Origin: Candidatus Dadabacteria bacterium
GTDB taxonomy: Bacteria; Desulfobacterota_D; UBA1144; Nemesobacterales; Nemesobacteraceae
Reading direction: 5' to 3'
Length of the DNA: 64,000 nt
Assembly: GCA_026705445.1 (NCBI GenBank)
Contig: JAPPAR010000011.1
Location: forward strand, 10,525-74,524
Each line of letters starts with the position of its first letter. The first letter of the stretch is position 1. Below, piece by piece: positions 39,164 to 51,482 of the stretch. Below the pieces are notes generated by a model, which worked only from the letters and a program-made list of their open reading frames with translations, was not told the origin of the DNA and did not search any database. Both the position numbers and the translations under genes were made by a program.

Positions 39164-39544
39164 ATGAAAACCGGAATCCTGCTCGCAACACTTGTCTTTT
39201 CCTGCGCGCTCTTTCTCGCGCCCCACGCTTCCCGGGCTGCCGACAGCGCTAAGGGACAGGAAATCTACAACGTCTACTGCGCTACCTGCCACGGCCTCAC
39301 GGGGCTTGGCGACGGAGTCGCGGCCGCCGCTCTTGACCCCAAGCCGAGGGACCTCTCGAGCGCCGCGATCCTCGAGACCTATACGGACGAGTACCTGGTT
39401 AACGTGATAACAAACGGCGGAGCGGCGGTCGGCAAGTCCCCGATGATGACCGCCTGGGCCGGGATAATAAGCCCCGAGGACATAGACAACCTGGTGGCGC
39501 ACATAAGGCAGAACCTCTGCAAGTGCGAGTACAAAAAGCAGTAG
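39164..39544 (+). CDS. class I c-type cytochrome (monohaem, CATCH)
   Basis: Signal peptide MKTGILLATLVFSCALFLAPHASRA, haem-binding CATCHG, ~126 aa. RBS GAAGGGAGG upstream of the ATG at 39164; the longest ORF starts at 39065. Confidence 0.8.
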   Translation: MKTGILLATLVFSCALFLAPHASRAADSAKGQEIYNVYCATCHGLTGLGDGVAAAALDPKPRDLSSAAILETYTDEYLVNVITNGGAAVGKSPMMTAWAGIISPEDIDNLVAHIRQNLCKCEYKKQ

Positions 39545-39590
39545 CATAAAAAAGCGCGGTCCCCTCTCAGTAAAGACTCAGTAAGGAAGC

Positions 39591-39968
39591 CGCGCCCTTT
39601 TCCTTATATATAAGCCCTCAGACTCCCTTTTCCTCAAGACCCGGGGGAAGTTCTCCGTAATAGGGAGAGTCCTCCTCGTACATCTCAAGGACCCTCTCCT
39701 TGGGCATGTCGCACATATCTTCCGTGAAACCGAACATCCTGCATATGTGGCGAAGCTCCTCCTCCCTTCCCGGAAGCGGGTCCATGGGCTGTATCAGTTT
39801 CTCCCCCTCAAGCTCCTTCCGCACGTCCTGGTTCTCGGCAAGCGGAGTTCCGTACTCGTTTGAGTGATAGAGCCTGTCGAACCTCTTCCTCGGTCTCTGC
39901 CCAGGGTCCTCGGCCGCATATCCCACCGTCATGAGCCAGATGGGAACTATGTTCTCGGGAGTCCCGAG
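39591..39968. repeat. ~380-bp direct repeat, copy A (intergenic plus 3' 124 codons of the nitroreductase gene); copy B at 44350..44730
   Basis: ~95% identity by eye between 39591-39968 and 44350-44730. The last ~52 nt of the cytochrome c gene (39491-39544) recur at 39980-40031. Confidence 0.8.
39618..39968 (-). pseudogene. nitroreductase 3' fragment (duplicate of the C-terminal 117 aa of 44380..45261)
   Basis: LGTPENIVPIWLMTVGY...LPPGLEEKGV is near-identical to the C-terminus of the full gene. The N-terminus (MRHHVLYV) comes from the junction and the duplicated cytochrome c end. Confidence 0.75.
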
Positions 39969-40041
39969 GACATACAAAACGTGGTGGCGCACATAAGGCA
40001 GAACTTCCGCAAGTGCGAGTGCAGGAAGTAGGGAGAATTTG

Positions 40042-42828
40042 TCAGATTGATAGCGGCGTTGTTTTCGGCAACATCTTTTTTTTCTCCGAGAACCTCTTCC
40101 TTATATCAATTACGGCTTGAGTGATCTCTGCGGGCAGGGATTCGAGTTCCTCTCCCGTTTCCGCCCGCACCGCGTGCCAGAGCGGTTCCATGGTTTCAGT
40201 CAGGGCAGGATGGCTTTCCATTATCTGCATGACCTGCTGGCTCCAGCCGGCCGCCGCGAGATTGATCAGGGATTCCGTCAGACCATGCGTGTTCCAGCAC
40301 TGTTGGCCGACGGCGACGGAAAGCGCTCGGTCAAGTTTTTCCAGGGCTGCCATCCAGTTCCCGCAGCGGGCCAGTACATCGGAGACCGCATGAAACGCGG
40401 CAGGGTCTTCCGGCATCAGCTCCGCTGCGCGGCAAGCGTAGCGTTTCGCTTCTTCCAGGCGCGCAGCCTCGTCACCCCCGAGAATCGCTTCCGCCCTGAC
40501 GCGCCAGGCCTCGCCACACTCGGGGTCAAGCTCCACTGCTTTTTTGCAGCCCGATTCCGAGTCGTCATAATATCCCAGCGAGTTGGCAATATTGCTCTTG
40601 GTGGCCAGCAGTCTGGCGAATTTCCGACGCGTATCCACCGGGTCATCCACATAAACATATTCTGAAAACCGGTCGCAGGAAATGATCCAGTCTTCAAACC
40701 GCCCCAGTTCCAAGTACGCCGTGTCCAGAGCGAACAACGCCAGACCGGCACCGTAACGTAATGTTATCGAGTCATCGGTACGAACATATTGAGTGAAATT
40801 TTCCAAAATGGACACAGCTTCATCATAACGCTTTTGTGCGACAAGAGCGTTTCCTCTCTCGGCAAGCGTCTTGAGAAATGTCAGGCGTAACAATTCCGGA
40901 TCTTCCGGACAGACATATTGCGAGACCTGCCGCCAGATCGCGAGAGCTTCTTCATGATGATCCGCTTCCAAGAGAAGTTTGCCATGAACCCGAATCAACT
41001 CAGTAGCTACATAGCGCAGGGGATGCGGGTCATCCTGGTTTACAAGTTCCCAAATTTTTGCAATAACGCTTAAGACATCGCCAGAATTTTCCAAGGCGAG
41101 AAGGACTCCAGCCTCCCCCGTCAGAGCTCCAAGCGCGCAAATCTGCAATTGTGCGGGGTCATCGGGACCGACAGCCTCGGTTACATGCCTGAACGCATCG
41201 AGGGCATCCTCAAAATGCCTTCTTCCCCTTAGTGCCGAGCCAAGAAGAACCCAAGCAAAAAGATTATCCGGTTCTCGCCTGATTGCCCCTCTGCACTCGG
41301 TTTCCGCCTCCACGAAGCGTTCAGATTGGAGTAGTTCGATGCCGCGACAGACCTTATCCGAAAAACAATCCAAACCTAGCTGGTAGTGCCGGGAAAGGTC
41401 CCGCACTATTTCGCCAAATGCTGACACGTTCGCGCCGATAGAATTGATTATCAGGCTAAAGGCCTTCTTCATCCAGTCTTCGCGTTCCGCGAAATCACTG
41501 TCGTTCGCCGCATAGGGGATCAGGGCTCCAAGCAGTTCAGGCGCCTCTTCATCCTTAGAGACCCCGCTGCTTAACTTCTCAAGAGTCGCCAGATACATCG
41601 ACCGCATCGGAACCGGGCCGAACAGATCGTTGAGGAAGTCTACCAGCAGCTTCAGGCGTCGATATCCCCGCCGCGAGAAACGCAGCAGGAAGTAGATGTT
41701 GTAGAACCGGTCGGCAACCTCGTACCGGATACGCTTTTCCCTCTCTGGCCGCGCTTCCCTGGCGTATCCCTTGTCCACCAGCTGCTTGAGCTGGGCGCTT
41801 GTGTGAGATGAGGAAAGCCTGGCCGCGGCGGATACTTCCTTCGCGAGCATGGGACTCCATCCCTCCGCAAGGCAATGAAACACCTTTCGGGACTGTGTCG
41901 GCAGCTCCTCAATGCGGGACTTGAAGTACGGAGTCTGTTCGTCGATCAGCTGTTCTAGATCCTTGAACGCGGAACCGAGCGGCGACTCAACCAGAATTCC
42001 GTAGGTCAGCACCAGCAGCCGCGGGTTTCCTCCGGTCAGGCGGCGCATGGTCTCGATTCGCCCGCGTTCGCGGCTCAGTGTCTCGGCAATTTTAGTTTTG
42101 CATTCACGTTCTGCGAGGGCCCGGAAGATCTGAAGATACTCTTCGCGCCCAAGACCTTCCAGAAGAAAAACCCGGAAAAACTCGTAGAACGGTTCGCCGC
42201 GGTGCTGTATGGCCTCAAAGACGGCGTTTGCGGAACCGATCAGCAGTATCTCCGGATGTTCGATCAACGCGGCCCGCAAAGCGTGGACTTCGCGCTCATC
42301 ACCCAGTTGTGAGAAAACGATGTCAAGATTTTCGACAAACAGAATCAGCCTCTTTCCGCTTTCTCGGGAGAAATCAATAAGAACCGAGAGCGCGTACGCG
42401 GCAAGGCGCTGCGGATCCTTCTCGTCGGCCGAAAGCGCTTCTGCCTTGTCCTCCCATCGGGAATCCCGAGTGGCGCGGGTCAGGTGATGCAGGGCCGTAA
42501 GCCAGAAATCCGCCAGGTCGGTCACCTGATAGCTTTCCTCGTGAAACGCCACGGGCTGCCATGCTTCTGCAAGATCGGGCGTTTCGCGTACCGCCTGGAG
42601 AAACCGCAGACCGAGGGTGGTTTTGCCCATCCCCCGCGAACCGACAAGCAGCATGTGCTGGCACGGTCGGTCGGTTTTCTGCTCGTCCAAGAGGCGAAGC
42701 ATCTCAGTGAGGGTCTCCTGACGGGCGACGAAGGAAGCCTTGAGTTCTTCCGGGGAGAGTTGGGCCGGGTTGTAGATACGTCTTTGCTTCATGGCTCCAT
42801 CCCCCCTGACCGGTTTTTCCGCCACCAC
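40042..42828 (-). CDS. ORC/Cdc6-like AAA ATPase (Arch_ATPase type) with a winged helix and a long C-terminal TPR array; STAND-like NTPase
   Basis: Walker A LLVGSRGMGKTTL, Walker B RLILFVENLD, winged-helix segment, then ~450 aa of TPR-like repeats. 928 aa. Overlaps the upstream ATPase gene by 40 nt. Confidence 0.75.
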   Translation of the reverse strand: MVAEKPVRGDGAMKQRRIYNPAQLSPEELKASFVARQETLTEMLRLLDEQKTDRPCQHMLLVGSRGMGKTTLGLRFLQAVRETPDLAEAWQPVAFHEESYQVTDLADFWLTALHHLTRATRDSRWEDKAEALSADEKDPQRLAAYALSVLIDFSRESGKRLILFVENLDIVFSQLGDEREVHALRAALIEHPEILLIGSANAVFEAIQHRGEPFYEFFRVFLLEGLGREEYLQIFRALAERECKTKIAETLSRERGRIETMRRLTGGNPRLLVLTYGILVESPLGSAFKDLEQLIDEQTPYFKSRIEELPTQSRKVFHCLAEGWSPMLAKEVSAAARLSSSHTSAQLKQLVDKGYAREARPEREKRIRYEVADRFYNIYFLLRFSRRGYRRLKLLVDFLNDLFGPVPMRSMYLATLEKLSSGVSKDEEAPELLGALIPYAANDSDFAEREDWMKKAFSLIINSIGANVSAFGEIVRDLSRHYQLGLDCFSDKVCRGIELLQSERFVEAETECRGAIRREPDNLFAWVLLGSALRGRRHFEDALDAFRHVTEAVGPDDPAQLQICALGALTGEAGVLLALENSGDVLSVIAKIWELVNQDDPHPLRYVATELIRVHGKLLLEADHHEEALAIWRQVSQYVCPEDPELLRLTFLKTLAERGNALVAQKRYDEAVSILENFTQYVRTDDSITLRYGAGLALFALDTAYLELGRFEDWIISCDRFSEYVYVDDPVDTRRKFARLLATKSNIANSLGYYDDSESGCKKAVELDPECGEAWRVRAEAILGGDEAARLEEAKRYACRAAELMPEDPAAFHAVSDVLARCGNWMAALEKLDRALSVAVGQQCWNTHGLTESLINLAAAGWSQQVMQIMESHPALTETMEPLWHAVRAETGEELESLPAEITQAVIDIRKRFSEKKKMLPKTTPLSI

Positions 42829-44000
42829 TCCCTAAGCAGGTTCGATCTGAAACACACATGGGAGCCATCCCGCCGCACGTACCCGTCCGATTCCAGATTG
42901 CGAAGCGCCGAGAGAAGCTCGCTTTCGCCCTGCCGGGTCAGTTTCTCAATATCCGAGATGCGCGCACCGTCTCTCCGCCGACAGGCGTGATTGAGTATGT
43001 CGTGCGCCGCTTCCTGCTCGTCTGCGTCAAGCATGATTTCCAAGCGGGCTGCGTAATGGTCAAGATGAGGCGTGCCGCCAGGTCCCGTAAGCCTTTCCGT
43101 GAAGCATCGCTCTATTGCACTTTCGGAAACGCGCGAGGGGTCCCCATTGCAGGATTGGCGAAGGGTCGAAAAAAACAGTTGCAGGTGATAGGGAACCGGA
43201 TCCGAGAGGAGGTCGAGAATTTGTGAGACGCTACGTTCGTCCATGCGGAAGCCATAACTGTCTCCAAGCTCCTCCAGAAACTTAACTGCGACATCCCGGT
43301 CCCATGAATCCAGCTGGAAAGGGGCCAGATCGTTTATTAATCCCGAAAGAGCAAAGCGTCTGAGAACGCCTTCAAGCCCGATGGACCCGCCGATCAGTGT
43401 GCACACCTTCCCGCGCATCTGCGGAGACTGGCGCCAGCGCCGGAGCCCGGACAGCAGCAACTCGACATCATGTTTTCCCTCGAGGGTTTTCAGCATGCGC
43501 GAGACGAGTATCGGAAACTCGTCGAGGATGATCAGGAGGCTGCGACCGGGATCCGGCAGACTCTCAAGACGTTCAAGAAGCTGATCCGCTGTACGTTTCC
43601 AGTCCCGGCCGATCGCCCTTTTGAGTTCAATGCGGACTTTTTCGATGCTGACGGAAACTTCGGAAAAGGAAAATGTGCTCTTGAGCGTGTCTACTACGGT
43701 CTTTGCGAACGGAATTTTTTCGATGCCTCGGCGGTACTCCGGGTTCACCGCCAGAGCGGCGACAATTGCCGCCAAGCAATCCGCCGAATCTTCGGCACCT
43801 TCAACATCCACATAAAAGACATCCCAGTTTTCCCGAGGTTCGCGACGAAGTTCCAACATGAGGCTGGTCTTCCCGACCCGTCGCGGGGCAAGCATCAGAA
43901 CATGCTCTCCCTGCTCCAGTTTTTCCCATAGCAGTTCCAGTTCGGATTCTCGTCCGTAGAGGTCTTCGCCGATTACCGCCTGTCCTGTAATGTTTTGCAT
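42789..44000 (-). CDS. ORC/Cdc6-like AAA ATPase (Arch_ATPase + DUF234-like winged-helix C-terminus)
   Basis: Walker A LMLAPRRVGKTSL, Walker B LLIILDEFP. 403 aa. First gene of a two-gene operon with the ATPase-TPR gene. Confidence 0.75.
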   Translation of the reverse strand: MQNITGQAVIGEDLYGRESELELLWEKLEQGEHVLMLAPRRVGKTSLMLELRREPRENWDVFYVDVEGAEDSADCLAAIVAALAVNPEYRRGIEKIPFAKTVVDTLKSTFSFSEVSVSIEKVRIELKRAIGRDWKRTADQLLERLESLPDPGRSLLIILDEFPILVSRMLKTLEGKHDVELLLSGLRRWRQSPQMRGKVCTLIGGSIGLEGVLRRFALSGLINDLAPFQLDSWDRDVAVKFLEELGDSYGFRMDERSVSQILDLLSDPVPYHLQLFFSTLRQSCNGDPSRVSESAIERCFTERLTGPGGTPHLDHYAARLEIMLDADEQEAAHDILNHACRRRDGARISDIEKLTRQGESELLSALRNLESDGYVRRDGSHVCFRSNLLREWWRKNRSGGMEP

Positions 44001-44349
44001 CCGCTCGACTCCCGTTCAGATCAGGATGGAAAACAGAATACATGACAAGGGGTTTTTTGGCAATAAACTTTTTGGCAAAAAGTTTATTGCCATAGGGGAA
44101 TCCACAGAAGATGCTATCGTCGCACTTCCACGAAATCCAAGGCAATCATTCAGGTCCAGAAAACCCGACAGACGCACAGTCAGTTTTTCAGCACAGCGGA
44201 AAACGGCGAAACACTATACACCCAAAGCGTAGTCACCATCACTCATCGCCTTTCGCCCAAGGACATGTCCGCCACGCACTTTCCTAGCCTCGCTCGCTCA
44301 TCAGAAGCTCCTTCTCCCGCAGCCTCCCAGCCACTTTTTTTTCTTCTCG

Positions 44350-44730
44350 CGCGCCCTTTTCCTTATTATATATAAGAGCTCAGACTCCCCTTTCCTCAAG
44401 GCCCGGGGGAAGTTCCCCGTAATAGGGAGAGTCCTCCTCGTACATCTCAAGGACCTTATCCTTCGGCATGTCGCACATATCTTCCGTGAAACCGAACATC
44501 CTGCATATGTGGCGAAGCTCCTCCTCCCTTCCCGGAAGCGGGTCCATGGGCTGTATCAGTTTCTCCCCCTCAAGCTCCTTCCGCACGTCCTGGTTCTCGG
44601 CAAGCGGAGTTCCGTACTCGTTTGAGTGATAGAGCCTGTCGAACCTCTTCCTCGGTCTCTGGCCGGGATCCTCGGCCGGGTATCCCACCGTCATGAGCCA
44701 GATGGGAACTATGTTCTCGGGGGTCCCGAG
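44350..44730. repeat. ~380-bp direct repeat, copy B (within the intact nitroreductase gene and its downstream region)
   Basis: See 39591..39968. Confidence 0.8.
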
Positions 44731-45261
44731 AACCTTCGGGAACTCAGCCGGCTTTCTGCCCGTGGCTATAAGGCAGCACCCGAGGCCCAGGTCAGTGGCC
44801 GCGAGCATGGCGTTCGCTATTGCCTGGCCCGCCTCGACCCTTAGAAGATCCTCCGCCCTGTCCTTGGGAAAACTCATGAGCCTCGGATAGGTGCTCTCGG
44901 TAAGTATCTTGTAGGTCCAGCCGTGAGCGGCGGTTATGGCCCTCGCGGGAAACAGCACCTGGAAGGTCTGTATGAGCTCCTTGTACCAGGCGTCTAGGTT
45001 TATGAGCCACGCCACGATAATCGGGGCCTGGCGCAGGTGAATCTCGTTAAAAGCGGATCCGCATTCAACTATCTTCTCGAATTTCTCCGGGGGATAGGTC
45101 CTTTTGTCTATGACTATCGCCTCGGTCGAGTTGCAGTTGCCCTGGCAGGAGCAGTAGCGCGCCGCCTGGAGCATCTTCTGTATTTTCCAGTCCTCAACCT
45201 CTTTCCAGGGCTTATAGAACCTAAAGCTTCTCCTGGTGCCCATTGCTTCAAAAACTTCCAT
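44380..45261 (-). CDS. nitroreductase-family flavoprotein
   Basis: N-terminal RRSFRFY motif, nitroreductase-fold length and pattern, 293 aa. Confidence 0.7.
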   Translation of the reverse strand: MEVFEAMGTRRSFRFYKPWKEVEDWKIQKMLQAARYCSCQGNCNSTEAIVIDKRTYPPEKFEKIVECGSAFNEIHLRQAPIIVAWLINLDAWYKELIQTFQVLFPARAITAAHGWTYKILTESTYPRLMSFPKDRAEDLLRVEAGQAIANAMLAATDLGLGCCLIATGRKPAEFPKVLGTPENIVPIWLMTVGYPAEDPGQRPRKRFDRLYHSNEYGTPLAENQDVRKELEGEKLIQPMDPLPGREEELRHICRMFGFTEDMCDMPKDKVLEMYEEDSPYYGELPPGLEERGV

Positions 45262-46410: not shown

Positions 46411-47319
46411 ATGAGGTGCTGCATGGCAGAAAGCCTTCCTTTCGAGCCTGATGACTTGGACCAGAAAACCGTATCTCCCTTAAAGGAACTAGGGGCGTAT
46501 GAAGCGTTATGGGATCAAAAGGGCATGTCCTTCAAAAAAATTTCCGAAATGCACCAAGGCCGCTGGGAATCGTCTCTTTCTGATTTTGTGGACGAAGCCA
46601 TTGCCTACGAGTTTGCCGGTCGTGTTCGCAGTTTGTTCGACGAGTCTGGGATTGACAAGTTCGGCGTTTGTGTTCGTGGTACGGGAGAATACCCCAAAGG
46701 CCTCTATGACGCCGTTTATCCGGTTGAATTGCTTTATTTTCAGGGATTGTGGGGTCTGGTTTTCACAAGATCAGTTGCGGTCGTGGGTACGCGCAAGCCG
46801 TCCGAAAAGGGAGTTGCTCGTACGCGCCGCCTTGTCAGAAACTTGGTGGAAAACAATTTCACCATAGTTTCAGGGTTAGCTTCTGGAATCGACACCGTCG
46901 CACACACTACAGCGATTGAGTCTGGAGGCCGGACCATAGGAGTAATTGGCACCCCGATTTCAAAATTCTATCCAAAGGAAAATGTTGAGCTTCAGAAGAA
47001 AATAGCAAAGGAGCATTTGCTTGTAAGCCAAATTCCAGTATGCCGTTACTTGCGGCAGGGGCCGCGCGGGAATCGGCTATTCTTTCCAGAGCGTAATATA
47101 ACGATGTCCGCACTTGCCGAAGCAACTATTATTGTCGAGGCTGGCGAAACATCAGGAACTCTGGTTCAAGCTGCCGCGGCTCTTAAACAGGGAAGGAAAT
47201 TATTCATCCTTGATAATTGTTTTTGCAATTCCACTCTCACTTGGCCAAGAACTTTTCTTGAGAAAGGCGCTATAAGGGTTGCTGATTACGAAGATATAAG
47301 GAGACATCTTGGCTCTTAG
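46411..47319 (+). CDS. DprA/Smf-like (SLOG/DNA_processg_A Rossmann) domain protein
   Basis: VAVVGTRKPS...IVSGLASGIDTVAHTTAIESGGRTIGVIGTPI...IVEAGETSGTLVQAAAALKQGRKLF is the DprA-type Rossmann core. AT-rich; overlaps the next gene by 11 nt. Confidence 0.7.
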   Translation: MRCCMAESLPFEPDDLDQKTVSPLKELGAYEALWDQKGMSFKKISEMHQGRWESSLSDFVDEAIAYEFAGRVRSLFDESGIDKFGVCVRGTGEYPKGLYDAVYPVELLYFQGLWGLVFTRSVAVVGTRKPSEKGVARTRRLVRNLVENNFTIVSGLASGIDTVAHTTAIESGGRTIGVIGTPISKFYPKENVELQKKIAKEHLLVSQIPVCRYLRQGPRGNRLFFPERNITMSALAEATIIVEAGETSGTLVQAAAALKQGRKLFILDNCFCNSTLTWPRTFLEKGAIRVADYEDIRRHLGS

Positions 47320-47941
47320 GCTCTGCAAGATTGATGATCTCTTACGAAGCGATCATTTATATCTTACGGAAGATGATCATTGCTTTTTTTTTCGGGAATA
47401 TACCGCAAACAAGAGCTACGATTACGGCGAAACTAACGACCTAATTCAGAATTTTAAGAAAGAGCTAGATAAAAAAGGTACATCTCAATGGAAATACAAG
47501 GGAAAGGCAATAAACAAAATAGCGGAAGAATTTCGGGAATCGTTAAAAGCGGAATGGTTTGAGGAATACACCTTAGTTCCGATTCCACCATCAAAATCAA
47601 AAGAAGACCCACTCTATGACGATCGTATGGTTCAAATGCTTAAGATTTTTGGGCAAGGGCTTAACCTTGATATCCGTGAATTGGTCCTGCAACGCGAAAG
47701 TACCCCACCATTTCACAAAATCACCCCTCGTCCACCTTGGGAAGACCTAGTTGATAACTATTACATTGACGAAAATATCGCAAATCCTGAACCGAAAAAG
47801 ATTATTTTATTTGATGACCTTCTCACTGAAGGCGCACATTTCAAAGCTGCCCAACATGTTCTTGAGAAGAGATATCCCGGCATAATTACCAGAGGGGTTT
47901 TTATAGCACGACGAGTATATGCGGATGCCGAAGAAATTTAA
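47309..47941 (+). CDS. phosphoribosyltransferase (type I PRTase)-like protein
   Basis: PRPP-binding motif IILFDDLLTEGAHF. 210 aa, translationally coupled to the DprA-like gene. Confidence 0.7.
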   Translation: MALRLCKIDDLLRSDHLYLTEDDHCFFFREYTANKSYDYGETNDLIQNFKKELDKKGTSQWKYKGKAINKIAEEFRESLKAEWFEEYTLVPIPPSKSKEDPLYDDRMVQMLKIFGQGLNLDIRELVLQRESTPPFHKITPRPPWEDLVDNYYIDENIANPEPKKIILFDDLLTEGAHFKAAQHVLEKRYPGIITRGVFIARRVYADAEEI

Positions 47942-48088: not shown

Positions 48089-48134
48089 CGTATATAATAA
48101 TCCATTATGAGCAACGGGAAATCCTTTATGATAG
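48089..48134. repeat. duplicated copy of the nitrilase promoter and first 8 codons (direct repeat with 49035..49080)
   Basis: gtatataataatccattatgagcaacgggaaatcctt here and gtataataacccattatgagcaacggaaaatcctt at 49035..49080. The repeats flank the HEPN/MNT cassette. Confidence 0.75.
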
Positions 48135-48229
48135 GTGGAGTCCGGCTTCAGGTTCTTTCCGAAATCCTCCACCGCAGTCACGAGGAGCTTCGCCGGGAAG
48201 ACAGGACTTGGCAATGAAGGATCGTTTTC

Positions 48230-48652
48230 ATGATTGAATACGACAAATTTCAAAATTCCCTGAAACGCCTTGAGGAACAGTACGGAAATTACCGTGCCAT
48301 AGAGAACTCTGACCTGGATTCGATAATGTGGGAAGCTGTGGCCGAGTCGGTCATACACAGGTTTGAGGTCTGTTACGACTGCCTATGGGAGGTGCTGAGA
48401 CGCCACCTCGCAGAGGAGCTCGGCGTTCCAGATGCCCCAAACAGCCCGAAACCTGTTTTCAGACTGGCCTTTGAAAACAACCTTCTCCCCTCACCGATCG
48501 AAAAATGGCTTGATTACGCAAACAGCCGCATCAATACAAGCCATGACTATGATGAGGGAAAGGCCAGAAGATGCCTTGGAATCATAAGCAGCTTTATTGA
48601 CAATGCCACAGGTCTTTACGAAACAATGAGCGGAGAAACATGGAAACAGTAA
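48230..48652 (+). CDS. nucleotidyltransferase substrate-binding protein, HI0074 family (HEPN-like toxin of a HEPN/MNT pair)
   Basis: Family pattern (NTase_sub_bind), 140 aa, overlaps the downstream MNT gene by 13 nt. Confidence 0.7.
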   Translation: MIEYDKFQNSLKRLEEQYGNYRAIENSDLDSIMWEAVAESVIHRFEVCYDCLWEVLRRHLAEELGVPDAPNSPKPVFRLAFENNLLPSPIEKWLDYANSRINTSHDYDEGKARRCLGIISSFIDNATGLYETMSGETWKQ

Positions 48653-48957
48653 AAGCTATTGATATCTCTTCTGAGCAGCGCGGCGTTCTTCTTGCGCTGC
48701 TTAAAAAGCATCTTCCGAATACCCGCGTCTGGGTATACGGTTCCCGCGCGAGGCTTGCCGCGAAAAAGAGTTCGGACCTCGACATGGTGGTATTTGCCGG
48801 AAGCGGACAGAGAAGACAGGTCGGCGATCTTCGGGAAGCTCTTGAACAGAGCGATCTTCCGTTTCGGGTGGACCTGTTCGTGTGGGATGACATGCCGGAG
48901 AGATTCCGGGAGAAAATTGAAGGTGACCACGTAACCCTTGTTTCCCCTGACCACTAA
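48640..48957 (+). CDS. minimal nucleotidyltransferase (MNT, HI0073-like antitoxin)
   Basis: GSRARLAAKKSSDLDMVVF is the GS-x9-13-DxD nucleotidyltransferase motif. 105 aa. Confidence 0.8.
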   Translation: METVKAIDISSEQRGVLLALLKKHLPNTRVWVYGSRARLAAKKSSDLDMVVFAGSGQRRQVGDLREALEQSDLPFRVDLFVWDDMPERFREKIEGDHVTLVSPDH

Positions 48958-49034
48958 ACGCAGGCGGGAGGGTCATGCTCTGGTTCCAAAGAGAGACGCA
49001 AACTCAAAATGAATCTGCATTTTCCCTGAGTTCC

Positions 49035-49080
49035 GTTGTATAATAACCCATTATGAGCAACGGAAAATCCTTCACGGCGG
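49035..49080. repeat. native nitrilase promoter/start; second copy of the direct repeat
   Basis: See 48089..48134. Confidence 0.75.
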
Positions 49081-49958
49081 CTGCGGTGCAGGCAGCTCCC
49101 GTTTTTCTCGACAGAAAGGGCACGGTCGACAAGGTCCTCAGGCTTATAAAGGAAACAGCGGGAAACGGGGCTGAACTCGTGGTTTTCCCCGAGGCCTTCA
49201 TACCCACCTATCCCTACTGGCCGAAGGATCTCGGGTTCGGGGCCGAGAAAAAGCTCACCATGGACGCCCACGTCGAGCTACACAGAAACTCGGTCGAGGT
49301 TCCCGGGGAGGACACCAAAAGAATCGGCAATGCGGCGAAGCGGGCCAAGACCTGCGTCGTAATAGGGGTTAACGAAAAAGAGGGAGGAACCCTCTACAAC
49401 ACCATACTCTACTTCGGCAAGGACGGTTCCCTTCTCGGAAGGCACAGAAAGCTGATGTCGATTGACAGCGAGAAATGCGTATGGGCGAACGGAACCGCCG
49501 AGGACGTGAGGGTGTTTGACACCGAAATCGGGAAAATAGGGGGACTTTTCTGCTACGAGCACCACATGACCCTTGAGAAGTACGCGATGTTCACCAAGGG
49601 GGAGCAGGTGCACGTGGGTCTCTGGGGAGGACACTCGTTCGTTAAGGACACGATGGATTTCGCGAGCCGACAGTACGCGTTTGAGGGACAGGTGTTCGTC
49701 ATAATCTCAGCCGGCTTCATAGAAGAGGATATGATTCCCGACTCCTTTCCCCTGAAGGAGCATACGATCTGGGATTACCCCGGGGGAAGCGGCATAATAA
49801 ACCCCAGGGGACAGTACATAATCGGCCCCGTATACGGAAAGGAAGAGATTCTCTACGCGGAGATCGAGCTTGACCAGATAATAAGGGCAAAGACCGTAAT
49901 AGACTCCGTGGGGCATTTCTCAAGGCCGGACATATTCCGATTCGAGATAATGGAGTGA
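49053..49958 (+). CDS. carbon-nitrogen hydrolase (nitrilase/aliphatic amidase superfamily)
   Basis: Catalytic E-K-C context (FPEAF..., RKL..., GGLFCYEH). 301 aa. Confidence 0.85.
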   Translation: MSNGKSFTAAAVQAAPVFLDRKGTVDKVLRLIKETAGNGAELVVFPEAFIPTYPYWPKDLGFGAEKKLTMDAHVELHRNSVEVPGEDTKRIGNAAKRAKTCVVIGVNEKEGGTLYNTILYFGKDGSLLGRHRKLMSIDSEKCVWANGTAEDVRVFDTEIGKIGGLFCYEHHMTLEKYAMFTKGEQVHVGLWGGHSFVKDTMDFASRQYAFEGQVFVIISAGFIEEDMIPDSFPLKEHTIWDYPGGSGIINPRGQYIIGPVYGKEEILYAEIELDQIIRAKTVIDSVGHFSRPDIFRFEIME

Positions 49959-50203
49959 TGTTGCTTCGGGCAATCCGCCTTTATTTATTCAGTGATGTCC
50001 CATTCCCTGCCGACAGGCAAGGTCAAGTCCACACCCGGTGAGATAGTTACAGTACCCTTTAACGAACCGGAAATACGTGAGAAAAAACTGGATTCAGCCT
50101 CATCTTTAGGCTCGACCCGAGCGGGTTGTTTTTCTCCGTTCTCAGGTGACAGCTTGTGTCCAGACATTTCGGTAACTCCTTTACATGGTTAGTTTCTAAT
50201 GAA

Positions 50204-50842
50204 TTACGACTTAGCAAACGAAATCAGGGAATCATAGATACCAGAGTCAGCCTCACGCAGTGCCGCAATATAGCGTTCGCGGACATCTTCAGACGCAGTG
50301 AGGTCGGCACCACCGCCCCATGTGAGTTTTTCACCACCATATTTGGCAACTATTACATCGGCAAGCAAGCGCGCGTGTCGGCCGTTGCCGTTCGGAAAAA
50401 GGTGAATTTTCACTAACCGGTGATGAAAAATAACGGCCAGTTCAGCAACACCGTAGGTATTGTGTTCCAGCCAATAAGCGGCATCGTCCAGCAACTTGCG
50501 AAATTCGGTCTGGATGAGGGAATAGTTGACGCCGATGTTTTTGTCGGATTTTCGGTACTGACCTGCCCATTTCCAGACACGACCGAACATGCGCTTATGA
50601 AGGTTCAGGATAAATTTCTCCGAAAAAATATTCTGTTTCGATGCCAAAACAGATTTCCGCATTACCCATCTCCGGGCTTCAAGAATATTTTCCCGCTCGA
50701 AACGGTCCAGATCTTCACGCATTAATATGGTGGGAACGAGATGTTCCTTCTCTTCCTCGCTAAGCGGGGTCTGGCCCTCTGTATAACGATACTGAACCAT
50801 TTCAGTCCCACAGACTGATGGCAGGGTTGCGCACCAACTCAT
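50204..50842 (-). CDS. Fic/Doc-family protein ('mobile mystery protein B')
   Basis: Fic motif HLFPNGNGRHARLLADV. The true start is probably MVQYRYTEG, which overlaps the partner gene. Confidence 0.8.
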   Translation of the reverse strand: MSWCATLPSVCGTEMVQYRYTEGQTPLSEEEKEHLVPTILMREDLDRFERENILEARRWVMRKSVLASKQNIFSEKFILNLHKRMFGRVWKWAGQYRKSDKNIGVNYSLIQTEFRKLLDDAAYWLEHNTYGVAELAVIFHHRLVKIHLFPNGNGRHARLLADVIVAKYGGEKLTWGGGADLTASEDVRERYIAALREADSGIYDSLISFAKS

Positions 50843-51251
50843 CAGCGATTTGGGCGGTTTTCTCCTGCCTGTCGCCTACATCCTGCGCTTCAAGCATCAT
50901 GCTGTGGTCCACAGGATCAACGATATCACGAGCCTTTCTGAGCGCCTGCTTGCGCACGATGTTCCGCAAGGAGCCATCATTTGGAACAAAAACATAAACG
51001 AGCCTGCAATCCAATGCTTCAGCCGCCTTGCGAAGCGACCTAAGTGTAATCGCATCATTGATCTCGTTTTTCTCCAAACGAGCGGCGGATTGCTGTGTGA
51101 TTCCTATACGTTCCGCCATCTGACGAACGCTCATGCCAAGCGAGGTGCGGACAGCACGAATCCAACCGCCAGAGGGACGGTCGCAAACATTCACTCTGGA
51201 AAGGTGGTCATCCAGCGTCTGCAATTGCATATACTTAAATTTGTTTGTCAT
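50802..51251 (-). CDS. XRE-type HTH protein ('mobile mystery protein A')
   Basis: HTH (MSVRQMAERIGITQQSAARLE) and the family pattern, immediately upstream of the Fic gene. Confidence 0.75.
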   Translation of the reverse strand: MTNKFKYMQLQTLDDHLSRVNVCDRPSGGWIRAVRTSLGMSVRQMAERIGITQQSAARLEKNEINDAITLRSLRKAAEALDCRLVYVFVPNDGSLRNIVRKQALRKARDIVDPVDHSMMLEAQDVGDRQEKTAQIADELVRNPAISLWD

Positions 51252-51482
51252 ATCACAGCCTATATTCTGTAAGTAAAACCAATGTTAACAGGATAAAAGC
51301 TGTAAGTCAAGGATAAAATTACAGAATATAATCTGTGACTAGATTTAGGCTTGATTTCCCAAAGCCCTTCGACAATAACGCTGAAAAGAATATAGAAGTG
51401 GCCAAATTTCTATATTTGCAGATATGTTCTGCTTGCTAAATCCCATTTTTTACAGAAACCAAAATTGTCAAAGACGAAAAGC

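Follow-up and report, generated by a model that had tools for sequence, protein, structure and literature searches.

Linear DNA with one homologous end has been found in Escherichia coli to give mostly single-crossover products, in which the homologous segment is duplicated over 109-950 bp, as expected of a circularised fragment (Amarir-Bouhram, Goin & Petit 2011, PMC3240628). For homology-facilitated illegitimate recombination (HFIR), that article describes junctions with 3-10 bp of microhomology, accompanied by deletions (PMC3240628). In the loci of type VI secretion system effectors, of Rhs proteins and of contact-dependent inhibition (CDI) systems, displacement arrays of orphan 3' fragments and immunity genes are found (Kirchberger et al. 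2017, PMC5361080). The locus studied here lies in a stretch of 64,000 nucleotides from a Candidatus Dadabacteria bacterium (contig JAPPAR010000011.1, assembly GCA_026705445.1), hereafter the window, and consists of a cassette of two ATPase genes that stands between a c-type cytochrome gene and a nitroreductase gene and is flanked by direct repeats of about 380 bp. We estimate at roughly 0.75 the probability that these repeats were left as a scar by recombination at a variable hotspot, where the cassette was imported from a sister lineage, rather than being the ends of a mobile element. The finding is a known kind of event, working like products of the single-crossover/HFIR class, and is well documented since the empty, clean and scarred states of the site survive in relatives. 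All coordinates are given in window numbering, and L001-L090 are the labels of comparison loci fetched in this analysis.

In comparison with the single crossover of a circularised fragment, the locus presents the same flanking homologous duplication, here of 380 bp, and the same lack of a site-specific recombinase. It differs in that an engineered plasmid fragment was used in E. coli, whereas here an uncultured symbiont is concerned, with an exchange in nature between two of its sister lineages, for which a circular intermediate can only be postulated (PMC3240628). With HFIR in naturally transformable bacteria, as treated in the same article, the locus shares a homologous anchor and an illegitimate join at a G+C-rich microhomology, here GTCCCGAG; unlike the classical products described there, which delete recipient DNA beyond the anchor, the join lies inside the anchor gene and 380 bp are duplicated (PMC3240628).

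Repeat limits were established by a repeat search, direct sequence reading and blastn, and gene content by open reading frames (ORFs) and Pfam; the features are collected in Table 1. On the plus strand, the order is tnpB, the cytochrome c gene (with its tail, A), a 44-nt spacer (sp44), an orphan nitroreductase fragment on the minus strand (B), a second copy of the cytochrome c tail (A'), the minus-strand genes of a 928-aa and a 403-aa ATPase, a 349-nt leader, the intact nitroreductase gene (minus strand), which contains the second copy of the long repeat (B'), and a short-chain dehydrogenase (SDR) gene. Both B and B' comprise nitroreductase codons 177-293 and 30 nt beyond the gene end. By reading and blastn they are 95.5% identical over 381 columns, with a single 3-nt indel, and the repeat search returned a gapless pair (39604-39903 and 44366-44665) with 97% identity. 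The same search found A and A' to be a repeat of 72 nt with 86% identity. Repeats so long and so similar cannot be of chance origin. The unique insert, from the end of the cytochrome c tail copy to B' (40032-44349), measures 4318 nt, and the spacing of B to B' is 4762 nt. A first-pass annotation made from the letters of the window had given this gene order, exactly as ORFs, Pfam and mapping now return it, and direct repeats of ~95% identity, whose limits are slightly wider than was thought; it had also seen that the end of the cytochrome c gene recurs, which is correct, and put the length at ~52 nt, which falls short of the 72 nt found.

The layout is real, and an assembly artefact is not supported. 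It occurs, as what is here called the window type or type iv, in 18 loci (L001-L007, L014 and L076-L085), several of which are overlapping fetches of one record and which represent about 12 separate assemblies. By exact-protein look-ups, they come from the sets ROBB21, ENGE20 and SHAF22, from two megahit and three GenBank genome assemblies and from Logan contigs, and the assemblies differ in study, sample and assembler. Order, junction and B-specific edge single-nucleotide polymorphisms (SNPs) are identical in 18/18 loci, and the Logan contig L008 spans the junction of A' and B by 30 nt. A chimeric contig, stitched at the shared repeat from an empty-site and a cassette-bearing strain, might be thought of because all window-type assemblies are short-read metagenomic and some of them have seemingly smoothed haplotypes in the central zone of B and B'. 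We give it next to no probability, however, because a strain chimera cannot generate the new join of nitroreductase codon 177 to cytochrome c codon 103, because the same junction and SNPs recur throughout these assemblies and a contig crosses the junction, and because the scar is common to two sublineages with 3-6% background divergence. The first-pass annotation had argued that the divergence of the copies speaks against a trivial assembly duplication, and this divergence does go back to a foreign origin. It had also kept mis-assembly as a possibility: the shared junction and L008 do not support an artefact, yet a caution remains on SNP phase, which, all type-iv assemblies being short-read, is less certain inside the copies than the existence of the copies.

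The cytochrome c tails are of two kinds. The empty-site kind (...AAC CTG GTG...TAC AAA AAG CAG TAG) is found in the resident gene of the window, in L019 and in L020, and the cassette-adjacent kind (...AAC GTG GTG...TAC AAG AAG TAG), which is without the last codon, in L023, L016, L018, L043 and L025. A' has three diagnostic states linked to the cassette, i.e., GTG, TTC (shared with L023) and the missing terminal CAG codon. According to blastn, it is 90-92% identical to the cassette-adjacent tails versus 86% to the tail of its own genome; A is 97-99% identical to L019 and to the cytochrome c fragments that lie beside nitroreductase in L018 and L022. Given both the cassette-linked allele states of A' and its higher identity to cassette-adjacent tails, it is what remains of a cytochrome c gene carried along with the cassette, and not a copy of the resident gene.

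The nitroreductase copies stem from two lineages. In their coding part, B and B' differ by nine synonymous and four non-synonymous changes, with a dN/dS of 0.12, a pS of 0.12 and p = 0.0003 against the neutral expectation. Since the differences are mostly synonymous, as accumulate in functional genes, B and B' are two functional alleles of different lineages rather than a duplicate that decayed in place. B' of the window is 96.9% identical to L019 by blastn, and a 300-nt scan window that covers most of B' in L003, a type-iv locus, is 98.7% identical to L019.

The junction was mapped by comparing its letters with B' and with the cytochrome c alleles. In the product these letters are CTCGGG-A-GTCCCGAG-G-ACATA, where the nitroreductase parent has CTCGGG-G-GTCCCGAG-A-ACC and the cytochrome c parent ATAATA-A-GTCCCGAG-G-ACATA. 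Up to 39959 the sequence is nitroreductase-type, positions 39960 and 39969 are cytochrome c-type, and GTCCCGAG is common to both parents; the join is a typical microhomology join. The spacer sp44 is 95% identical to the empty-site spacer of L019 (blastn) and has a folding energy of -29.8 kcal/mol (z -4.3), followed by U6; it is probably a bidirectional terminator between convergent genes. The outer boundary of the cassette (44349/44350) severs the native terminator hairpin past its left arm, with a boundary sequence, GGGCGCG/CGAGAAG, that is common to the window, L023 and L034, and the cassette takes the place of the 44-nt spacer rather than interrupting it.

These results also bear on an in-genome tandem duplication of ~490 bp, from the cytochrome c tail to nitroreductase codon 177, with the ATPase pair inserted later. 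The cytochrome c tail copies are indeed 490 nt apart, and a microhomology junction fits a slipped or tandem event. This explanation is nevertheless very unlikely, given that A' has the cassette-linked and not the resident allele, that the differences between B and B' are strongly biased towards synonymous ones, unlike the decay of a duplicate, that the spacer is replaced instead of interrupted, and that the left boundary is inherited from an L023-type arrangement. It would furthermore require at least two events, where one suffices otherwise.

The states of the site in relatives were obtained by scanning species-representative genomes with the nitroreductase protein. This yielded 65 loci, many of them on complete long-read chromosomes: 64 are orthologues at 73-99% identity in the Dadabacteria clade (Candidatus Dadabacteria, which NCBI places in Thermodesulfobacteriota), and the one left over is a 27% match in an archaeon. 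The organisms are presumably sponge-associated, as we take from the recognised source data sets (ROBB21, ENGE20, SHAF22 and the GenBank RHO/CAR bins). The gap between nitroreductase and cytochrome c varies across ~40 related species: 10 sites are empty, 8 hold the cassette and more than 10 hold other cargo. The empty sites (type i) span 73-89 nt and are those of L012, L013, L017, L019, L021, L024, L026, L031, L038 and L066. In L023 (type ii), the ATPase pair lies between both genes without a duplication and adjoins a full cytochrome c gene. Type iii comprises L018, L020 and L016, where the pair is accompanied by a mirror-image cytochrome c 3' fragment beside nitroreductase, and L043 and L015, which have very short cytochrome c remnants on the nitroreductase side. 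Other cargo (type v) includes Schlafen-like (SLFN-like) genes, IS66 and IS4/5 transposases, a group II intron reverse transcriptase, a DruA-like/Tn5 protein and a cassette for a metallo-beta-lactamase-fold (MBL) protein; a scan of representative cargo proteins, covering 10 of 49 clusters, returned no integrase. The commonest alternative cargo is a Schlafen AlbA_2 + HATPase_c_4 protein of 405-421 aa that adjoins cytochrome c, in L020 (15368-16627), L022, L027, L029, L030, L032, L033 and L034, and another member of this family lies close to the ATPase pair in L090, a contig of Desulfurellaceae.

Fragments of the anchor genes are present in L011, L015, L016, L018, L020, L022, L025, L027, L034, L043, L078, L082 and the window, and the joins that produced them are irregular. 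L018, L020 and L022 have one join in common, of cytochrome c (~88 nt kept) to the cassette leader, and L027 has a different join at nearly the same position. In L016, L015 and L043, ~46, ~45 and ~25 nt of cytochrome c are kept, respectively, each with a separate partner sequence. Relics similar to A' directly follow the large ATPase gene in L011, L015 and L016, and in L034 a nitroreductase-end relic is 1 kb away from the gene. L078 (11196-11700) and L082 (7310-7700) have the window-type layout plus a third nitroreductase fragment, of codons 239-293, which is joined at ...GTCATAAC/ATGGACCCG to the cassette for the MBL-fold protein; in these two loci a second scar is stacked on the first. Altogether, there are at least seven independent junctions, each with its own breakpoints, which fall either within the final ~100 nt of cytochrome c or in the 3' part of nitroreductase. 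Such irregular joins in the 3' parts of the anchors point to general rather than site-specific recombination. The ~75-nt gap between these convergent genes is a variable hotspot that repeatedly gains and exchanges cargo.

The hotspot can be set beside three described kinds of locus. As in displacement arrays, successive anchored imports leave displaced 3' fragments, the intact gene having as many as two fragments of cytochrome c or two of nitroreductase beside it; unlike in those arrays, the anchors are ordinary redox genes (a c-type cytochrome and a nitroreductase) and not polymorphic toxins, and the cargo is an independent operon instead of a swapped C-terminal tip with its immunity gene (PMC5361080). 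As in defence islands and other variable hotspots, the same core pair brackets empty or varied cargo in relatives, and the neighbours include ShosTA, HicAB, SLFN-like genes and insertion sequence (IS) elements; the ATPase pair is, however, a candidate defence cargo only, with weak PADLOC matches. As in integron cassette arrays, new cassettes add to a stack at a single site and displace the older ones, yet here there is no integrase, attC or attI, and the breakpoints are irregular.

A self-mobile integrative element, such as a prophage remnant, an integrative plasmid or an element resembling an integrative and conjugative element (ICE), would have the repeats as attL and attR. The insert is flanked by direct repeats of target-gene 3' sequence, and elements that target gene 3' ends leave the same appearance. 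This alternative is extremely improbable, however. The insert has only the two ATPase genes, and Pfam returned no integrase, transposase, replication, other recombinase or replicon, or phage genes in 40032-44349; there is no phage match, and the plasmid matches are remote (24-32% identity). The repeats are diverged alleles of 380 bp and not a short identical core, and no short att core common to all boundaries was found, the breakpoints varying among carriers: the cassette occurs at this site without repeats (L023) or with other breakpoints (L018/L020, L016, L043 and L015). In addition, tnpB (37896-39062) is missing in sublineages with an identical scar. Mobilisation by tnpB/IS605 was rejected on this last ground, and a site-specific integrase was rejected given the lack of a recombinase and the irregular breakpoints.

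Import from a sister lineage is supported by the nearest neighbours of each part. A sliding scan for nearest neighbours, run along a window-type locus, puts both flanks closest to L019, which has an empty site (94-98.7%), and the cassette closest to L023, L043 and L015 (92-97%). The G+C content of the cassette equals that of the core flanks, which fits an exchange within the clade. We infer that the recipient belonged to the window lineage and had an empty site, as does its closest sampled relative, L019, and that the donor belonged to a sister lineage with the two-ATPase cassette between the same genes, adjoining a full cytochrome c gene in the L023 arrangement; this donor gene would end ...DIQNVVAHIRQNFRKCECRK. 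On one side, an ordinary homologous exchange would have occurred in the nitroreductase 3' region. At the other end, a break in the donor cytochrome c at codon 103 would have been joined to nitroreductase codon 177 at GTCCCGAG, with cytochrome c, the native terminator, B, the junction, A', the cassette and the intact nitroreductase with B' as the product.

This could have come about by two routes. In route (a), the fragment would have circularised at the microhomology and then undergone one RecA crossover within the 380-bp homology (Campbell topology); in route (b), a linear one-ended exchange or a template switch would have fallen back inside the anchor gene. A circular and a linear intermediate are indistinguishable from the sequence, and both are weighted about equally. 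Route (a) would be favoured for the window because linear DNA with one homologous end mostly gave such duplications in E. coli (PMC3240628), and route (b) for the scars of other genomes because their 25-46 nt are too short for an efficient crossover. The first-pass annotation had proposed Campbell-type integration of a circular molecule. Its topology agrees with the layout, which is the one that a circle with the cytochrome c end, the ATPase pair and the nitroreductase 3' part would give by a single crossover, and the donor arrangement that it predicted exists in L023, with the left insert boundary of the window. Nothing, on the other hand, points to an episome or integrative element: the insert has no recombinase, replicon or phage genes. 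It had recommended a comparison with genomes that lack the insert, which the 10 empty sites, including that of L019, now provide, and had named an ancestral, unduplicated pair as evidence against itself. The unduplicated pair does exist, in L023, but the pair is not ancestral to the window lineage, because L019, nearest on both flanks, has an empty site. None of the ten places listed, of 21 contigs, was an empty-site contig with the exact cytochrome c allele of the window, and a 21-mer of the native spacer, searched for empty-site or excised forms, had 0 matches in JGI metagenome contigs.

The polarity of the exchange may also be reversed. A cassette-bearing recipient (nitroreductase-cassette-cytochrome c) would then have taken up DNA from an empty-site sister, with homology upstream of cytochrome c and an illegitimate end at cytochrome c codon 103; the old cytochrome c would be truncated, and the orphan nitroreductase fragment, the terminator and a new cytochrome c gene added. 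This is a variant of the best explanation and not a different mechanism. It gives the same product in a single step, and it accounts for the contiguity of B, sp44 and cytochrome c and for the resemblance of B' to the genomic background. We regard it as unlikely, however, since the site is empty in the relative to which both flanks are closest, and since the cassette (~93% to the nearest) is more diverged from the sampled relatives than are the flanks (94-98.7% to L019).

Several results weigh against an import of the cassette into an empty site as outlined above. A' carries 5-6 private changes, and, the donor being unsampled, even the most similar cassette available has a protein identity of only ~93%. 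SNP phasing of B and B' against 20 strains and the 18 window-type loci is mosaic and gives no clean assignment of donor and recipient: the 3' zone of B' matches L019 at 7/7 of the sites that differ between B and B', the adjacent 3' zone of B does not, and this pattern fits neither simple route without later conversion or allelic replacement. B and B' share a central haplotype in some genomes and not in others, with tracts of three lengths in L003, L002 and L085 where B carries B' states; the central 197 nt thus seem to evolve in concert, which looks like gene conversion but may also be due to smoothing in the assembly (de Bruijn) graph, and the within-genome identity of these 197 nt was not relied on for conclusions. 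The scars of 25-46 nt elsewhere also mean that no single route fits every scar. Finally, the deletions of classical HFIR stand against the duplication in the window (PMC3240628), and the type-iv evidence consists of short-read assemblies only.

Once formed, the scarred module spread between sublineages by flank homology, since parts of the cassette are near-identical while the background is not. Between the two window-type sublineages the background is 93.5-97.7% identical, in comparison with 99.8% for the 403-aa gene, 98.9% for the leader, 100% for A' and 98.7-100% for cytochrome c. The large ATPase gene is mosaic: against L002, L003, L080 and L085, its nucleotide identity is 96% for the 5' third, falls to 88% for the middle third and is 92% for the 3' third. 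With the overlapping 403-aa gene at 99.8%, a swap of the TPR part of the large ATPase between sublineages is suggested.

The locus is a clear natural case of cargo moving among uncultured symbiont lineages without dedicated mobility genes, and annotations should not present it as the insertion of a prophage, plasmid or island. The 380-bp direct repeats are in principle able to delete the cassette by homologous recombination. A broader proposal, which we put forward as tentative and rather doubtful, is that the gap is a recombinase-free cassette-stacking site, where one-ended imports between species leave dated scars, where the ATPase genes form an unnamed, undescribed system of defence-like kind, and where excision is RecA-reversible. 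If true, the locus would be a readable record of successive transfers.

Two entries of Table 1 concern gene calls. An ORF start at 39065 is an upstream extension of the cytochrome c gene, which all public assemblies call at 126 aa. The orphan nitroreductase fragment (39618-39992, minus strand) appears in public assemblies as a hypothetical protein of 119-124 aa beside cytochrome c, and should be recognised as such a fragment; it has an intact frame that starts from a codon antisense to the cytochrome c relic.

Table 1. Coordinates of the features at the ATPase cassette and its flanks (window numbering).
Feature	Position	Strand	Remarks
Resident cytochrome c	39164..39544	+	126 aa, signal peptide; Pfam Cytochrome_CBB3/Cytochrom_C
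A, resident cytochrome c 3' tail, codons 103-126	39470..39541	+	Second, diverged copy at 39960-40031
sp44, native empty-site intergenic spacer	39545..39588		Hairpin between A-run and T-run; only beside B
B, orphan nitroreductase 3' fragment, codons 177-293 + 30 nt downstream	39589..39968	-	Frame intact
Novel junction, 8-nt block GTCCCGAG	39961..39968		Nitroreductase codon 177 to cytochrome c codon 103
A', decayed second cytochrome c allele, codons 103-125 + stop	39960..40031	+	Allele linked to ATPase cassette
Cargo gene 2, 928-aa AAA_16 ATPase + TPR array (STAND-like)	40042..42828	-	Pfam
Cargo gene 1, 403-aa PF01637/AAA_16-like ATPase	42789..44000	-	Pfam; 40-nt overlap with gene 2
Cassette leader, promoter-like site + palindrome + older-cargo relics	44001..44349	-	Present in all carriers
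B', repeat copy within intact nitroreductase gene	44350..44731	-	Reading + blastn
Intact nitroreductase-family gene, 293 aa, PF00881	44380..45261	-	One of two core anchors of the hotspot

For the 403-aa protein of the cassette, 395 homologues were found. Three were sampled (75%, 62% and 61% identical), and each is followed by an AAA_16+TPR partner of 841-907 aa; the sampled homologues include Desulfurellaceae and Acidobacteria genome assemblies. Several of the homologues sampled in other phyla (61-75%) come from sponge metagenomes, and the Acidobacteria homologue is also present in the ENGE20 metagenome set, which has window-type Dadabacteria contigs. The pair is next to a type I-F CRISPR-Cas locus and a Schlafen-like gene in L090, and to HipA, DUF4143 and NERD-kinase genes in L088. 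More distant pairs (24-32%) are on Clostridium and Moraxella plasmids, one of them adjoining Qat defence genes. PADLOC gave only weak partial matches for the 403-aa protein (mad8, 2e-5) and no match for the 928-aa protein. Searches of PADLOC, NCBIfam and PDB sequences returned no system name for the pair, the matches being generic AAA/TPR ones and a weak one to 2qen, an ATPase of PF01637. The pair is a conserved two-gene NTPase module in a defence-like context and may have a defence role. Being a widespread operon that lies by CRISPR-Cas, toxin-antitoxin and Schlafen-like genes elsewhere, it is a reasonable candidate for functional testing.

The leader is conserved upstream of the 403-aa gene in all carriers. 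It includes a 35-nt palindromic region (44058-44092) that forms a hairpin with a 16-bp stem (core GGCAATAAACTTTTTGCCAAAAAGTTTATTGCC). The 403-aa gene is preceded by a promoter-like site, whose -35 overlaps this region. The palindrome is kept, with small changes, in every genome with the cassette leader, and may be an operator. At 44150-44260 the leader has the 3' end of a small decayed ORF (...LFGTWPGDPDDGFEEAVDGLRHR), which is longer in L034 (10300-10600), L016 and L058 and may be the relic of an older, antitoxin-like cargo gene.

Variable cargo is also present on both sides of the locus. Upstream of cytochrome c there are an island of ~13.6 kb (24030-37672), with HicB-like genes and a 2008-aa PIN-TPR-GreABC protein, and a tnpB (IS605 OrfB/Cas12f-like) element (37826-39080). 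Both are missing from L003 and L019, and only a remnant of an Rdx gene lies between them (37672-37826). Inside the island, at 26809-27025 on the minus strand, Rfam identifies a group II intron D1-D4-6 (RF02005, 115 bits).

Two genes past the intact nitroreductase, a complete ShosTA anti-phage pair is found at 46411-47941, with PADLOC values of 2.8e-94 for ShosA, which is DprA-like, and 3.5e-47 for ShosT. Its G+C content of 0.39-0.49 is below that of core genes, and the pair is missing from most related species. Further insertions relative to L003 are a nucleotidyltransferase/NTase-substrate-binding pair (48128-49039) and an HTH-Fic pair (49958-51479), and many small toxin-antitoxin-like cassettes are scattered among the core genes of the window.

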